Shown here piece by piece: positions 7,876 through 59,541 of a stretch of 64,000 bases of DNA. Where the stretch lies: contig JAIFKS010000024.1 in NCBI GenBank assembly GCA_020049465.1, positions 210 to 64,209 on the forward strand. The letters run 5' to 3'. Position 1 is the stretch's first letter. Each line of letters opens with the position of its first letter. The notes beneath the pieces were generated by a model. The model was not told the origin of the DNA and ran no database searches. It was given only the letters and a program-made list of their open reading frames with translations. The DNA is from a bacterium. Lineage in GTDB: Bacteria; Krumholzibacteriota; Krumholzibacteriia; LZORAL124-64-63. Position numbers and translations under genes: made by a program.

Positions 7876-9825
7876 TCAGTCCCCGATCTCGAGATTCCAC
7901 TGTTCCCAGTCGGCCATGTGCTTGTGCAGCTCGACGTCGATTTCCAGGATGCGCCGCCCGGCCGTCGCGCGCTGCTCGCCGCCGGTGTCGGGGGCGGCCA
8001 GAAGCGCGAACTGGCGCTCCTTCTCCTCCTCGAGCGCGTGGATCGCGGCTTCCGCCTCGGCGATCCAGACCCGGCGGCGGGTCTGTTCGTTCTTGCTCAG
8101 CGGCCCGCCAGGACCGGCTTGCGCCGGCGCAACCGGAGCCTGCTTCGCCGGCGTGCCCGCGACCGGCCCGCCCGAAGTGGAGATCATCCGCCCGGTCCGG
8201 TCCTGCACCCACTGCGCCCAGCCACCGTCGAAAACGCTGACGCTGCCGGTGGGCTGCCCGGCGCCGTCCAGCGGCGCGAACACCACCAGCTTGCTGACCA
8301 CCTTGTCCAGGAAGCGCCGGTCGTGCGACACCACGATCAGGGTGCCGTCGAATTCCCGCAAGGCGGCTTCCAGGGACTCGCGGCTGCGCACATCCAGATG
8401 GTTGGTGGGCTCGTCCAGCAGCAGCGTGTTGTGGCCTTCCTTGATCAGCCTGAGCAGCGCCAGCCGTCCGCGTTCGCCGCCCGAGAGCTGGCCCACGGGC
8501 CGGTCATACAGGTCTTCCCCGTAGCCGAAAGCCGCCAGGAAGCTGCGCAGTTCGCCCAGGGTGGCGGCCGGATCCACCGAGCCGATCTCGGCGATCACCG
8601 TGTTGTGGTCCGAAACGCCGGAGAGCTCCTGGTCATAATAGCCCAGGTCGACGTTGTGCCCCACCACGACACGTCCGGCGTCCGGCACCAGCTGGCCCGC
8701 CAGCAGCTTCAGCAGCGTCGACTTGCCGCACCCGTTGGGCCCGATGATGCCCAGCCGGTCGCCCCGCGACACGTGCAGATCCAGCCCGCGCAGCAGCGTG
8801 CGCTCACCGAAGCTCTTGCCCAGCCCGTGCGCCTCCAGCACCGTGCCGCCGCTCGCCCGCAGCGGCTGCAGCCGGAAGCGGTACAGCCCCGGCTCGGTCG
8901 AGGGCCTTTCCAGCCGCTCTTCCTTGTCCAGCTGCTTGCGGCGCGACTGCGCCTGTTTCGTCTTCTGCCCCTCGATGTTGCGGCGGATGTAGTCCTCGGT
9001 CACCTTCAACTTCGCCTGCTGCCGCTGCCAGGCCGCCTCGTCCTGCTCCCAGCGCAGCTTGCTCTGCTCGTCGTAGAACGAGTAGTTGCCGCTGTAGCTG
9101 GCCACGCGCCCCCGGTCCAGGTGCAACGTGCGTTTGGTCGCCCGGTCCAGGAACCAGCGGTCGTGCGAGACGATGACCGCGGCCCCGCGGTACCCCTCCA
9201 GGAAATTCTCGAGCCACTCGCACGATTCCAGGTCCAGGTGGTTCGTGGGCTCGTCCAGCAGCAGCAGATCGGCGCCGCTCAGCAGCACCGAAGCCAGGGC
9301 CGCCCTTCTGCGTTCGCCGCCGCTCAGCCGATCGGGCCCCAGCTCCCAGGTCGCGCGCGGCAACCCCACGCCCGTCAGCGCGGCTTCGAGTCGCGACTGC
9401 ATCGTGTAGCCGTTGCGCCGCTCGAACTCGTCCTGCAGGCGGCCCTGTTCGCGGACCAGCTGATGTTGCGCGCTTTCGTCGTGCGGCGCGGCCAGGCGCG
9501 CGGCGACATCGGCCAGTTCTCGCTCGAGCTGGCGTTCACGATGGAATGCGGCGTCGGCGACGGCATCGACCACGCGGCCAGGGCCGTGCGCGCTCACTTC
9601 CAGCGTTGTCTCCTGCCGCAGGTACTTCAGTTGCGTGCCGCCCAGCAGGGTGCGCGAACCGCCGTGCAGGGCGAGCTCGCCGGCCAGGATGTTCAGCAGG
9701 GTGGTCTTGCCGGCGCCGTTGGGGCCGACCAGGGCGCACTTCTGGCCTTCATAGATGGCGAAGGAGGCGCCCCTGAGGATGCGCTCTCTTCCAAAATCGA
9801 AACTTGCCTCGGTCAGGGTCAGCAT
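7876..9825 (-). CDS. ABC-F family ATPase (Uup/YheS-like, two ABC domains plus C-terminal coiled coil)
   Basis: Start MLTLTEASFDF at 9825. Two Walker A motifs (GPNGAGKTT, GPNGCGKST). Two LSGGE signatures. Interdomain linker. Confidence 0.9.
   Translation of the reverse strand: MLTLTEASFDFGRERILRGASFAIYEGQKCALVGPNGAGKTTLLNILAGELALHGGSRTLLGGTQLKYLRQETTLEVSAHGPGRVVDAVADAAFHRERQLERELADVAARLAAPHDESAQHQLVREQGRLQDEFERRNGYTMQSRLEAALTGVGLPRATWELGPDRLSGGERRRAALASVLLSGADLLLLDEPTNHLDLESCEWLENFLEGYRGAAVIVSHDRWFLDRATKRTLHLDRGRVASYSGNYSFYDEQSKLRWEQDEAAWQRQQAKLKVTEDYIRRNIEGQKTKQAQSRRKQLDKEERLERPSTEPGLYRFRLQPLRASGGTVLEAHGLGKSFGERTLLRGLDLHVSRGDRLGIIGPNGCGKSTLLKLLAGQLVPDAGRVVVGHNVDLGYYDQELSGVSDHNTVIAEIGSVDPAATLGELRSFLAAFGYGEDLYDRPVGQLSGGERGRLALLRLIKEGHNTLLLDEPTNHLDVRSRESLEAALREFDGTLIVVSHDRRFLDKVVSKLVVFAPLDGAGQPTGSVSVFDGGWAQWVQDRTGRMISTSGGPVAGTPAKQAPVAPAQAGPGGPLSKNEQTRRRVWIAEAEAAIHALEEEKERQFALLAAPDTGGEQRATAGRRILEIDVELHKHMADWEQWNLEIGD
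8117..8134. repeat. 18-bp palindrome family, degenerate copy N (15/18, 14-bp core intact), inside the ABC-F CDS
   Basis: GCTTGCGCCGGCGCAACC. Confidence 0.7.
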
Positions 9826-9959
9826 TTCCGGCCATGGGTGTCGGTGTGGCAGAGGTCCAGTGCAGGGGGTTGCCTGGACAGTCCTCGTCGCTGCGCTCCT
9901 GCGGATAGTCCAGGCAACCCCCTGCACTGGACCTCTGCCGCGCGGCCATGGCCGGAAAT
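9824..9959 (-). repeat. conserved-loop hairpin element, copy 1
   Basis: Outer 14-bp stem 9824-9837/9946-9959. Inner perfect 32-bp stem 9848-9879/9908-9939. The 28-nt loop 9880-9907 reads TATCCGCAGGAGCGCAGCGACGAGGACT on the minus strand. Confidence 0.8.
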
Positions 9960-10059
9960 CCGGCGCTGGCGGAGGCAATGGTCGTCTTTGGGACGGGAGT
10001 TGTCCATAGGGTTGCGAGGGCGCCCACCGACGGAGTCGAAGGCCACCGTGTCTCCGGGG

Positions 10060-10077
10060 GCTTGGGTCGGCGCAAGT
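10060..10077. repeat. 18-bp palindrome family, degenerate copy O (15/18)
   Basis: GCTTGGGTCGGCGCAAGT, just downstream of the hydrolase stop. Confidence 0.5.
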
Positions 10078-10090
10078 TTTGGTGGGGCGG

Positions 10091-58251: not shown

Positions 58252-59030
58252 CGGCTGATCCTCCCCAGCGGCAGCGAGACGAGGTCGATCGGACGGGTGC
58301 GCGCGGCCATCTCCATGGCCTGGGCGATCACGCGCTTGTTCCGGCCGGGCAGTTCGGTCCAGGCGGCCGTCGCGGGGTCCCAGTTGCCGACGCGCTTGCC
58401 GTCGGGGCTGCGCCAGAACAGGGCCAGCCGTCCGATGCGCAGGATGTCGGCGTGCGTCTCGCGGCCGGCGACCATGATGGTCTGTGGCTCGACCTCGACG
58501 GAGTTGCCGTACTGCGCCTCGATCAGCAGCGCCTCCAGCAGGTGGCGCAGCTTCTCGGCCGGGGCCAGGTCCGGCTGGGCCATGGTCAGGCGCAGGTTCG
58601 CCAGCCGGTCCTGACGCTCAGCGGTCAGGAACGGCAGGTCGGTCGCGACCACGGTCTCGAGCCGACCGAGCACGGCGTTGAGCGTGTCCTGGATCACCGC
58701 CTGCATGCGGGTGGATTCGATGAGTCGGCGCTCGAGCTCGGCCACCGCGCCATCAAGGGCGGCCGCCTTCTCGTTCTCGCGCGCCGTAAGTTCCTGCAGG
58801 TAGGCCACATTGGCCTGGGCGGCGCGGTAGCGGCGCTCCAGATTGGTGCGCTCCTGCGACCAGTCGTCGAGGCTGGTTTGGATCTGGCGAGCGGTATCGA
58901 CCGTTTCGTTCACGGTCGAAACCAGGGAATCGGGGGCCGAAGCCCGGCTCGTCGGCGATTGCGCAGCGGCCGGCGCCGCCAGCGCCAGCAACAGGGCCGC
59001 AGCCCCGGCACAAGCGAGAGATCGAAGCAT
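58248..59030 (-). CDS. DUF3450-like periplasmic coiled-coil protein (TtpB-like)
   Basis: Signal peptide, coiled coil. Motifs DLPFLTAERQDRLANL and ILRIGRLALFW. Confidence 0.75.
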   Translation of the reverse strand: MLRSLACAGAAALLLALAAPAAAQSPTSRASAPDSLVSTVNETVDTARQIQTSLDDWSQERTNLERRYRAAQANVAYLQELTARENEKAAALDGAVAELERRLIESTRMQAVIQDTLNAVLGRLETVVATDLPFLTAERQDRLANLRLTMAQPDLAPAEKLRHLLEALLIEAQYGNSVEVEPQTIMVAGRETHADILRIGRLALFWRSPDGKRVGNWDPATAAWTELPGRNKRVIAQAMEMAARTRPIDLVSLPLGRISR

Positions 59031-59358
59031 GGTCCACTCTTTCGTGATCGGCCCTGAACGCGAACGGGCGCGCGGCGCGGCGATGGGGACGCAGCCAACC
59101 TAACGGGGTCCTGTTAGGGCTGGGTTATGGGCCAGCGAATTGTTCGTGAATCCAGGGGATGGGGGCGGCGATTCGTGGTTGCGCTCCCGCGGCGCGGGCC
59201 TGACTGCAGGCCGCCGTGTCGCGGCCACATCTTGTTTCTGGGCAGTATGTTGCGCCACCGCCGGCGAACTACTCAGCATGTCGAGTAATGTGTCTCACCA
59301 TGACGGGCCGGCTTGAGGGCTGATTCGGGCGGCGGTGCCTTGTTCACATTTCGGCGAA

Positions 59359-59376
59359 ACTTGCGCCGGCGCAAGT
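59359..59376. repeat. 18-bp palindrome, exact copy L
   Basis: ACTTGCGCCGGCGCAAGT, intergenic. Confidence 0.95.
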
Positions 59377-59523
59377 CAACGCCGAACGCCATCCGTCCCC
59401 ACTTCAAGAAATGGCCATTGCGGCGAGAACGCAGAGAGCGGCTGTGAGTGCGGAGGCGAACAGGAGAGTCCAGATGCATGGATGCTGGCGAATGATACGG
59501 CCGGGGCTAGCTTCACCGCGAGC

Positions 59524-59541
59524 ACTTGCGCCGGCGCAACT
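59524..59541. repeat. 18-bp palindrome family, copy M (17/18)
   Basis: ACTTGCGCCGGCGCAACT, intergenic. Confidence 0.85.

Follow-up and report, generated by a model that had tools for sequence, protein, structure and literature searches.

An 18-bp palindrome interspersed across an uncultured high-GC bacterial lineage, with an HNH nuclease family as its candidate partner

The origin region and its palindromic repeats

The 64,000-nucleotide stretch of DNA analyzed here (hereafter "the window") comes from a bacterium placed by GTDB in the Krumholzibacteriota (assembly GCA_020049465.1, contig JAIFKS010000024.1, positions 210 to 64,209 of the forward strand), and is scattered with copies of an 18-bp perfect palindrome, ACTTGCGCCGGCGCAAGT, that a preliminary description had singled out from the sequence alone. 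We find that ACTTGCGCCGGCGCAAGT is a real, previously undescribed, lineage-wide interspersed palindrome. The window itself covers the origin of replication of an uncultured bacterium of 68% GC, with gyrA to dnaA followed by rnpA to parB, and has a G+C content of 63-71%; by Pfam, the minus strand carries gyrA, gyrB, dciA, recF, dnaN and dnaA and, after a strand switch and GC-skew minimum, the plus strand carries rnpA, yidC, jag, mnmE, mnmG, rsmG, three parS sites, parA and parB. The gap between the divergent dnaA (minus) and rnpA (plus), at about 26020-26666, is the probable oriC, combining the gene-strand switch with the cumulative GC-skew minimum. The three exact parS sites (TGTTCCACGTGGAACA, at 35675-35690, 35786-35801 and 35898-35913) lie 111-112 bp apart between rsmG and parA. 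The window annotation shows no gene for a recombinase or a transposase and no HNH gene.

A search allowing up to three mismatches recovered all 15 copies of ACTTGCGCCGGCGCAAGT at the coordinates first reported: eight exact, one with a single mismatch, two with two and four with three, or one exact copy per 8 kb and one copy per 4.3 kb when the degenerate ones are included. Dinucleotide-preserving shuffles gave a mean of 0.06 matches (largest value 1), so that the earlier claim of a real repeat family is borne out. A k-mer scan led to the same element, with sub-words of ACTTGCGCCGGCGCAAGT being the top over-represented 10- to 12-mers of the window and TTCCACGTGGAA, the core of parS, the sole comparably over-represented palindromic word. 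The 14-bp core TTGCGCCGGCGCAA is exact in 12 copies, has one mismatch in two, and is missing at 10060. By our own gene calls and Pfam, 11 of the 15 copies are intergenic and four are coding; among the former are six copies located 13-118 nt past a stop codon (those at 10060, 40549, 41290, 43886, 48318 and 16096). Six independent metagenome assemblies repeat 36-58 kb of the window at 99.6-99.9% identity without gaps, so the copies are not a misassembly; together with the unrelated flanks and the presence of the motif on many contigs of other genomes, this rules out segmental amplification or misassembly, and the concern raised in the preliminary description that all copies might lie in one such segment can be set aside.

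The copies to the left of the putative origin lie both within genes and between them. A degenerate copy at 8117-8134 (GCTTGCGCCGGCGCAACC, 15/18, core intact) falls in the 3' portion of a gene for an ABC-F ATPase (7876-9825, minus), where the frame, read by hand, is V-A-P-A-Q-A. An alpha/beta-hydrolase gene (10091-11410, minus) has a 15/18 copy with a broken core in the intergenic DNA 13 nt past its stop (10060-10077) and an exact copy (11340-11357) within its signal peptide (...GVLAGLAPAQVGAAEP...; also ...AGLAPAQVGAAEP). Another exact copy, at 13076-13093, is intergenic, 186 nt past the stop of a gene for an AraC-type regulator and upstream of one for a transglutaminase-like protein, and two 15/18 intergenic copies follow, one (core intact) at 16096-16113, 118 nt past the gyrA stop, and the other at 22639-22656, between dnaN (stop 22940) and recF (start near 22534).

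Across the origin, two exact copies lie within housekeeping genes: one at 32454-32471, encoding L-A-P-A-Q-V in the variable loop of mnmE between the G4 (TKMD) and G5 (SSLTG) motifs, and one at 33262-33279, encoding T-C-A-G-A-S in a loop of mnmG (gidA). Slipped tandem partial copies (about 2.5 copies of the 12-nt unit GGCGCAAGTGAT, 33271-33303, plus strand) begin in the right half of the mnmG copy. A 16/18 copy with an intact core stands 15 nt past the stop of a bactofilin gene (40549-40566) and is kept in a relative, L047. A gene-sized segment with an NYN-domain gene (41309-42334, plus strand) is bounded by two 25-bp direct repeats, each made up of an exact copy and the same flank (GCCGGG...C): the left one (41284-41308, with the copy at 41290-41307) is 19 nt past the stop of a 116-aa gene, and the right one (42335-42359, with the copy at 42341-42358) is 47 nt upstream of the start of an ADP-ribosylglycohydrolase (ARH) gene. 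Three spaced near-repeats (GATCAAGTCG, GAACAAGTCG and GATCAAATCG, at 41308-41365) directly follow the copy at 41290 and are reminiscent of the motif's outer half (CAAGTC). The segment between the two copies also contains, shortly before the NYN start, a strong terminator-like hairpin with a T-run (CCCTCCGGGTTGCGACCCGGAGGG TTTCTTTT, 41521-41544), preceded by a promoter-like site at 41449-41477.

Further along, a 16/18 copy at 43886-43903, 37 nt past the stop of a 138-aa gene, corresponds to an exact copy at about the same place in L047, and an exact copy at 48318-48335 is 48 nt past the stop of an S8 peptidase gene; here a 19-nt unit, GCTCGTTGTTGATYCACTT, is tandemly duplicated (48284-48321, plus strand) and its second unit overlaps the first four bases of the motif. 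The last two are an exact intergenic copy at 59359-59376, upstream of a DUF3450/ExbB-ExbD-TonB operon, and a 17/18 copy at 59524-59541, 116 nt past the stop of a gene for a secreted protein (59658-61322, minus). Two further features of the window may be recorded here. The Jag/KhpB homologue (29304-31235) is 643 residues long, with about 440 extra residues between Jag_N (8-56) and the KH/R3H region (502-624); the unusually high G+C of this stretch at codon positions 1 and 2 suggests a low-complexity linker. A HipB (HTH_3)/HipA toxin-antitoxin pair (48872-50573) is about 79-83% identical in a relative, L071; there, unlike in the window, hipA is directly followed by a motif copy.

A sharp 18-bp unit maintained at the DNA level

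The anatomy of the repeat was derived from 731 kb of pooled related DNA containing 220 copies with up to three mismatches. Information content is near maximal at positions 3-16, slightly lower at positions 1-2 and 17-18, and at background outside the 18 bp, except for a G/C preference at the two adjoining bases; mismatches are concentrated at the two outermost positions, and near copies are far fewer than exact ones. Outside the 18 bp, complementarity is at the level expected by chance. Conservation and complementarity thus both end at the 18-bp edge, in agreement with the earlier statement that the flanks are unrelated and that the copies are not parts of a larger duplicated block. The motif includes two GCGC sites and one GCCGGC site.

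It is the sequence of the duplex that is constrained, as for a dimeric DNA-binding protein, and not a fold. Degenerate copies show 108 one-sided changes vs. 12 compensatory ones; a single copy as RNA forms a hairpin with a 7-bp stem and a CCGG loop (-8.1 kcal/mol); no T-tract follows the copies (T is at most 17% at the flank positions of the logo); none of the terminator-like predictions at 40-49 kb coincides with a motif copy; and Rfam has no match for the motif. The weak stem, the mostly one-sided changes, and the lack of a T-tract or Rfam match rule out an RNA hairpin or terminator, and the earlier account of a zero-spacer palindrome located mainly after stop codons, without a T-tract and sometimes within genes, stands. 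We think that ACTTGCGCCGGCGCAAGT is a duplex-DNA site for a dimeric sequence-specific protein rather than an RNA or DNA hairpin signal.

The motif is also strongly conserved. In aligned orthologous and paralogous pairs, the core is 98% identical vs. 74% for the 60-nt flanks, and among 195 copies searched, all 172 with both flanks alignable are conserved (at most one mismatch) at a flank identity of 75%. Copies lying in frame keep the rare codons CTT and CAA, in all paralogues of the HNH gene family described below, despite a third-position G+C of 80-95%, which places the constraint on the DNA and not on the protein.

With respect to genes, the preliminary description had proposed mapping the copies to coding and intergenic sequence; 76% of 180 copies with at most one mismatch proved intergenic, or about 88% without those in HNH genes, although coding sequence makes up 86% of this DNA. 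This amounts to about 1.3 copies per kb of intergenic vs. about 0.07 per kb of coding DNA, a roughly 20-fold depletion in coding sequence. Intergenic density is highest between convergent genes (2.1 copies per kb), followed by tandem (1.4) and divergent (0.8) pairs, and copies lie a median of 42 nt from the nearest stop codon. The coding copies sit in surface loops, signal peptides and protein tails; 29 of the 42 are in the L-A-P-A-Q-V frame and about 24 (by our own count) are within the HNH gene family.

Related genomes and metagenome bins, where the preliminary description had suggested looking, hold the 18-mer in quantity: an exact scan of one genome per GTDB species matched at least 106 stretches. 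Most of the matches listed are in metagenome-assembled genomes (MAGs) labelled Candidatus Eisenbacteria or Krumholzibacteriia, three lake bins and two wastewater MAGs; a few matching high-GC MAGs carry labels that are implausible (a contig called "Victivallales" shares 96% identity with one from a lake bin). One lake bin has matches on more than 15 contigs, and in a 4.72-Mb single-contig MAG the matches listed are at 0.18, 0.82, 0.83, 2.66, 4.65 and 4.69 Mb; since copies occur all around this contig, the 18-mer is not specific to the origin. An origin-specific Noc- or parS-like site is ruled out, as copies are chromosome-wide and the true parS is a different palindrome. Phage origin was also rejected: the one viral contig holding the 18-mer has it once, in an unrelated low-GC tail-fibre-like gene.

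The coding DNA of the window is 81-84% identical to that of three motif-bearing genomes. We took the limits of the lineage from loci fetched via MnmE rather than via the motif itself. Among these, the 18-mer is present only in relatives with at least 66% MnmE identity and absent from more than 30 relatives with at most 57%, some of them equally GC-rich; nearly all of the latter keep parS, which was the only over-represented palindrome found in non-carriers and which occurs three to four times near mnmG/parA in most fetched relatives, including ones without the 18-mer. The 18-mer is therefore specific to one uncultured high-GC lineage. The literature search returned no paper containing the 14-mer, nor any linking Eisenbacteria to palindromes or REPs to HNH genes; with no Rfam match either, we found no description of the motif, which the preliminary description had likewise not recognized as a described element. 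A locus from outside the carriers, L154, which has only a distant HNH homologue and no 18-mer, holds a different repeat, an 82-107-nt intergenic element with a GCTTGCGAAAGCAAGC hairpin after four consecutive genes (FRG, YaaC and others), at 3967-4048, 5060-5141, 6152-6233 and 7358-7439.

An HNH gene family, the origin of copies and variable segments

The protein families encoded near copies point to a candidate partner. In the roughly 106 loci selected by the motif, HNH genes are the only multi-copy enzyme family (17 loci) and the second-largest protein cluster, the largest being a secretion-tail domain family: HNH_A, a gene of 330-430 residues, occurs in 13 loci and HNH_B (about 25% identical), which also carries the motif, in four. 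No transposase or integrase families appear among the protein clusters of these loci, and no enrichment of recombinases was found in the 0.73 Mb of motif-selected DNA. Single genomes carry at least four to six HNH paralogues, 70-77% identical in nucleotide sequence, and the copies have a fixed arrangement in and around them: counted from the start codon, the upstream copies are found at about -150 to -660, and the others fall at +410 to +430 (read as Q-L-R-R-R-K-S), +730 to +790 (read as L-A-P-A-Q-V) and +1000 to +1030 (again read as L-A-P-A-Q-V, just past the last HNH histidine). Among the closest homologues (the best 120 of 693), 116 have [LV]APAQ, and the conserved part of the protein ends at the C-terminal motif copy, the tails beyond being unrelated.

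By Pfam these proteins match HNH (PF01844) alone (E 1e-10), and NCBIfam adds a sub-threshold match to the HNH region of IscB. DUF222 is undetected in motif-bearing members at E<=0.01, and several relatives sharing 44-66% identity with a distant member have a precomputed match to it (PF02720). An AlphaFold model (pLDDT 79) predicts a helical N-terminal domain, a zinc ribbon and an HNH domain; in Foldseek searches, the best matches to the modelled N-terminal domain are the DNA-binding domains of ParB, Noc and Spo0J (probability 0.97-0.99), and the C-terminus is matched by HNH domains of the McrA type and by an HNH nickase. Dimers of ParB and Noc bind zero-spacer palindromes of 14-16 bp, and the predicted ParB/Noc-like domain fits the architecture of the motif. 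All HNH_A genes also share a promoter-like element, CCCTTGCGGTT-N-TTCGCTATCTTT, 60-90 nt before the start (L048 at about 3540-3620, and L008, L009, L013, L020, L026, L032, L050 and L053); its first part, CTTGCG, is the inner arm of the palindrome half-site, which hints at autoregulation by the gene's own product.

Copies appear to have arisen in more than one way. In MnmG, carriers alone have a 25-50-residue hairpin-loop insertion (non-carriers have two to nine residues there), in which the motif, read as T-C-A-G-A-S, precedes slipped units of 12-18 nt that each end in GCAAGT. In the MnmE loop between G4 and G5, the motif is read as LAPAQV both in the window and in L113, where five or six 12-nt repeats follow, and as TCAGAS in L114, whose mnmE has four copies in total, three of them in tandem at 39 bp where the window has nothing. 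Insertion is not the sole route, as the MnmE loop of the window is no longer than in some non-carriers. Spacing between neighboring copies peaks at 34-39 bp, and doublets sharing the spacer ATC-N-CGTGAG (folding at -38.7 kcal/mol) occur at distinct loci of three genomes, the strict doublet pattern matching one locus only because the partner copies carry single mismatches. One triple array has identical 20-nt spacers. Four-copy arrays are found in L015 (6557-6688, 38-bp period, two identical 20-nt spacers) and L083 (5396-5515, 34-bp period, differing spacers), and flanking half-sites are oriented like the adjacent half of the motif in 23 cases vs. nine reversed.

Copies also flank segments that vary between relatives. 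The NYN gene (41563-42201) lies between two copies that share 25 bases (GCCGGG, motif and C), and L047 has a single junction copy and no NYN gene; similarly, a 2.3-kb gene of L063 is enclosed by two copies, and L026 has a single copy at that place. Other differences that start beside a copy involve an S8 peptidase gene, a 3.3-kb three-gene block, a 0.8-kb methyltransferase gene and a 1.2-kb ATPase gene, and the genes gained are ordinary accessory genes with no mobility functions. Overall, 18 of 68 internal homology end points fall within 6 bp of the outer edge of a motif, vs. 2.3 expected for random intergenic positions. The positions of copies turn over among relatives with wholesale intergenic remodelling, and the DNA from gene to motif can be unrelated between two genomes even at 94-96% gene identity.

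Interpretation and comparison with known repeats

The reading that we favor, tentatively and at somewhat less than even odds, is that ACTTGCGCCGGCGCAAGT is a protein-recognized interspersed repeat of the class that includes the repetitive extragenic palindromic (REP) elements and HIP1, maintained and multiplied via the nuclease with a ParB-like helix-turn-helix (HTH) and an HNH domain. What the data establish is how the motif is distributed, how sharply its 18 bp are delimited, that it is maintained as DNA, that it sits in loop insertions and beside variable segments, and that its copies have a fixed arrangement in the HNH genes; recognition or cleavage of the motif by the HNH protein, and its spread and upkeep through cutting and repair, are our inference. 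In such a scheme, the candidate nuclease would bind the palindrome and nick or cut at or beside it; repair via other copies, or slippage, would homogenize the copies and make partial tandem copies and small arrays; repair would occasionally seed copies where these are tolerated (after stops and in surface loops, signal peptides and protein tails); and the copies would become breakpoints for the gain and loss of gene-sized segments. A bolder version, which we consider doubtful, would make the palindrome and the HNH nuclease a new repeat-and-enzyme pair, the functional counterpart of REP and RAYT, in which a dimer sits on the 18-bp duplex and nicks at its edge, repair homogenizes and multiplies copies even in essential genes, and the copies serve as cassette joints phylum-wide.

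Of the roles listed in the preliminary description, a REP-like element or a binding or recombination site fits best (the sharp unit, the sequence constraint, the bounded gains and losses, and the HNH link all agree with it), and a HIP1-like element fits poorly because the motif is strongly excluded from coding sequence; the remaining suggestion, an uptake signal, is weighed below.

Several observations weigh against the nuclease-driven reading. The proposed recognition of the motif by the HNH protein draws on the arrangement of the genes and on a predicted structure, and the E-values of the Foldseek matches to ParB and Noc are weak (0.1-0.3). For all its 15 copies, the window lacks an HNH gene. 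The HNH family also extends well beyond the motif, with 291 clusters at E<1e-30, LAPAQ being found only at about 58% identity or more; two distant-subfamily paralogues in one genome have no short palindrome family around them, and their DNA at the homologous internal site is not motif-like. The idea of co-evolving repeat "dialects" with distant HNH subfamilies thus found no support at these two loci of one genome, nor does the family in general bring a cognate repeat with it; the motif colonized, or co-evolved with, one HNH subfamily only, where cause may run in either direction. Similar peptides of distant homologues (LSPAEL, a basic linker) line up gap-free with the two internal HNH-gene copies, which therefore arose by substitution or conversion at tolerant places, and an uptake-type or repair-type drive would yield an identical pattern within HNH genes. 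Among the 195 copies searched there was no clean empty site, all alignable sites being conserved, so that no case of recent insertion of an 18-bp unit emerged; the window's strain variants are too alike (99.6-99.9%, no indels) for a comparison of empty and filled sites, and the intergenic DNA around copies is unalignable in relatives of 80-96% identity. Finally, the motif as the last conserved island before a fast-evolving spacer could partly explain the homology end points.

An uptake signal would account for some of these features: a competence receptor would prefer the palindrome, transformation and recombination would raise its copy number and keep it perfect, and selfish HNH genes would gather the motif to spread between cells. 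We regard this as unlikely, even though an identical sequence is kept across a deep lineage, as uptake signals are within families, with copies 98% identical against flanks at 74%, and though copies lie near the 3' ends of genes. The HNH copies, moreover, arose by substitution at peptide-compatible positions in different frames (LRRRK and LAPAQV), which is how the uptake signal sequences of Haemophilus are reported to behave in coding regions. The window also has a type IV pilus minor-pilin cluster (1653-6334, minus; PilY1-like, PilX-like, two N-methyl pilins and a FimT/GspH-like protein). Such a cluster is not diagnostic of uptake, however; type IV pili are common in non-competent bacteria, and these are the only competence-type genes seen in the window. 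Known uptake signals are 9-12-bp non-palindromic words occurring about once per kb, and we know of none that is a perfect palindrome; here the motif is an 18-bp perfect palindrome found about once per 4-8 kb. Neither the 34-39-bp arrays, nor the doublets with conserved spacers, nor the 25-bp direct repeat around the NYN gene is predicted by uptake.

It is also rather improbable that the motif is an architectural or regulatory site of the host, bound by an abundant non-nuclease protein (nucleoid-associated, a ParB/Noc-like paralogue, gyrase, or a termination factor) and kept by ordinary purifying selection, with the HNH genes merely containing sites. A zero-spacer palindrome constrained in its sequence is what one typically sees at a dimeric HTH site, conservation among orthologous copies is strong, and the placement between genes resembles that of REP and bacterial interspersed mosaic elements (BIME), which in E. 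coli bind IHF and gyrase. Multi-copy insertions and arrays inside essential genes are hard to explain in this way, however, and the positions of copies turn over between relatives; the true parS sites are separate, near parAB, and no candidate protein was found. An RNA-level role is unlikely because the hairpin is weak and shows no covariation.

A bias in repair, as proposed for HIP1, would have mismatch or very-short-patch repair, perhaps coupled to methylation at GCGC or GCCGGC, convert near-matches into the motif, with substitution and no mobility. The two GCGC sites and one GCCGGC site in the motif, the excess of exact over near copies with mismatches mostly at the two outermost positions, the internal HNH sites that arose from similar peptides without a change of length, and the failure to find an empty/filled insertion polymorphism among the 195 copies are all in keeping with this. 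We nevertheless judge it very unlikely: a target of 18 bp greatly exceeds every very-short-patch context known; chance is not expected to supply near-matches (0.06 per 64 kb), so that new copies cannot be seeded by substitution alone; duplication or insertion is required for the loop insertions, arrays and doublets; and the motif, unlike HIP1, is depleted about 20-fold in coding DNA.

Least probable of all is an attC-like site at which some other recombinase joins promoterless gene cassettes, the successive units bactofilin, 116-aa gene, NYN, ARH with the 138-aa gene, GH16 with the S8 peptidase, and so on, forming a cassette array: five copies at 40.5-48.3 kb, 15-48 nt or 139 nt past stops, do separate co-oriented one- or two-gene units, relatives do differ by whole units (the NYN gene, the S8 peptidase, the 3.3-kb three-gene block) and two segments are bounded by copies on both sides, but copies are genome-wide and beside housekeeping genes (gyrA, dnaN/recF, mnmE, mnmG) rather than in one integrase-linked array, a recombinase gene is neither present in the window nor enriched in the motif-selected DNA, the 18-bp motif has no R/L boxes or extrahelical bases, and, with about one quarter of intergenic regions holding a copy anyway, some two-sided flanking is expected by chance.

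To our knowledge, REP with RAYT is the only case among interspersed palindromic repeats in which the enzyme is known, and the cause of HIP1 has been open for decades. In the present case a long perfect palindrome has a concrete, testable candidate partner, a small nuclease with a predicted ParB-like domain and the site in and around its own gene. If the nuclease-driven reading is true, it would add a second, unrelated mechanism for spreading and maintaining short repeats, and would explain the swapping of gene-sized segments in this lineage. The 18-mer is in any event a sharp marker for binning and recognizing genomes of the lineage and a likely cause of assembly breaks; further, since the motif adds residues to the conserved MnmE and MnmG, annotators should expect extra residues in these proteins.

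Among known systems, several share only part of the picture. The GC-rich palindromic clusters of fungal mitochondria (such as the 18-bp PstI palindromes in Neurospora) are short and perfect, flank genes, enter coding regions and are linked to mobile endonuclease ORFs; being of an organelle and unrelated in sequence, they are a lead only. Clustered regularly interspaced short palindromic repeats (CRISPR) differ in that here there are at most four tandem copies, with 16-21-nt spacers that are often identical or shared between loci. The attC sites of integrons are 55-140 bp long, with R/L boxes and extrahelical bases; here the unit is 18 bp and genome-wide, with no recombinase in the window or enriched near copies. 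In mycobacteria, REP13E12/HNH endonuclease/DUF222 sequences are among the repetitive elements (PMC10589994). Like the genes described here, these are multi-copy, with an N-terminal helical domain and an HNH domain, and some relatives of our family score as DUF222, although the motif-bearing proteins are below Pfam detection of DUF222 (E<=0.01). The HNH genes here are multi-copy in single genomes and accompanied by the palindrome; we know of no genome-wide short palindrome that accompanies the mycobacterial DUF222-HNH genes.

The sites of ParB and Noc are likewise 14-18-bp zero-spacer palindromes, and the modelled N-terminal domain of the candidate binder resembles ParB/Noc, but parS has few copies, near the origin, whereas the 18-mer is genome-wide and about 100 times more frequent, and the candidate binder has a nuclease domain. 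The DNA uptake sequences (DUS) of Neisseria and uptake signal sequences (USS) of Pasteurellaceae resemble the motif in family-wide conservation against drift, in placement after genes, and in coding copies at tolerated peptides, yet they are non-palindromic, 9-12 bp long and present about once per kb, with no fixed-spacer arrays and no link to a nuclease family. HIP1 (GCGATCGC) of cyanobacteria is closer in form, being a perfect zero-spacer palindrome, hugely over-represented and lineage-wide, with some copies arising by substitution; HIP1 is 8 bp long, about equally frequent in coding and non-coding DNA and about 10 times denser, whereas our 18-bp motif is excluded from coding sequence and forms arrays, doublets and loop insertions.

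The differences from REP/REPIN-RAYT systems are substantial as well, and of the features that define REP/RAYT, the motif lacks those that could be tested. The motif is a perfect palindrome without a loop or a GTAG/GGAG head, and its flanks have only a weak G/C preference; its sequence is identical across a deep lineage rather than within a single species, and copies occur inside essential genes; and the candidate partner gene is a multi-copy HNH nuclease with a ParB-like HTH (predicted) and copies inside its own reading frame. A tblastn search with two RAYT queries found no match, and so no Y1 (HUH) transposase, in 1.09 Mb of genome fragments, a weak test since RAYTs are single-copy. Nevertheless, both are short GC-rich palindromes numbering hundreds per genome, almost all extragenic and mostly after genes; both occur as singlets, fixed-spacer doublets and clusters; both are hot spots of recombination or insertion; and in both a nuclease gene is flanked by copies. 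It is the REP class, then, that the motif most resembles in its behavior: extragenic, arranged in singlets, doublets and arrays, recombinogenic, and tied to a nuclease gene surrounded by copies.

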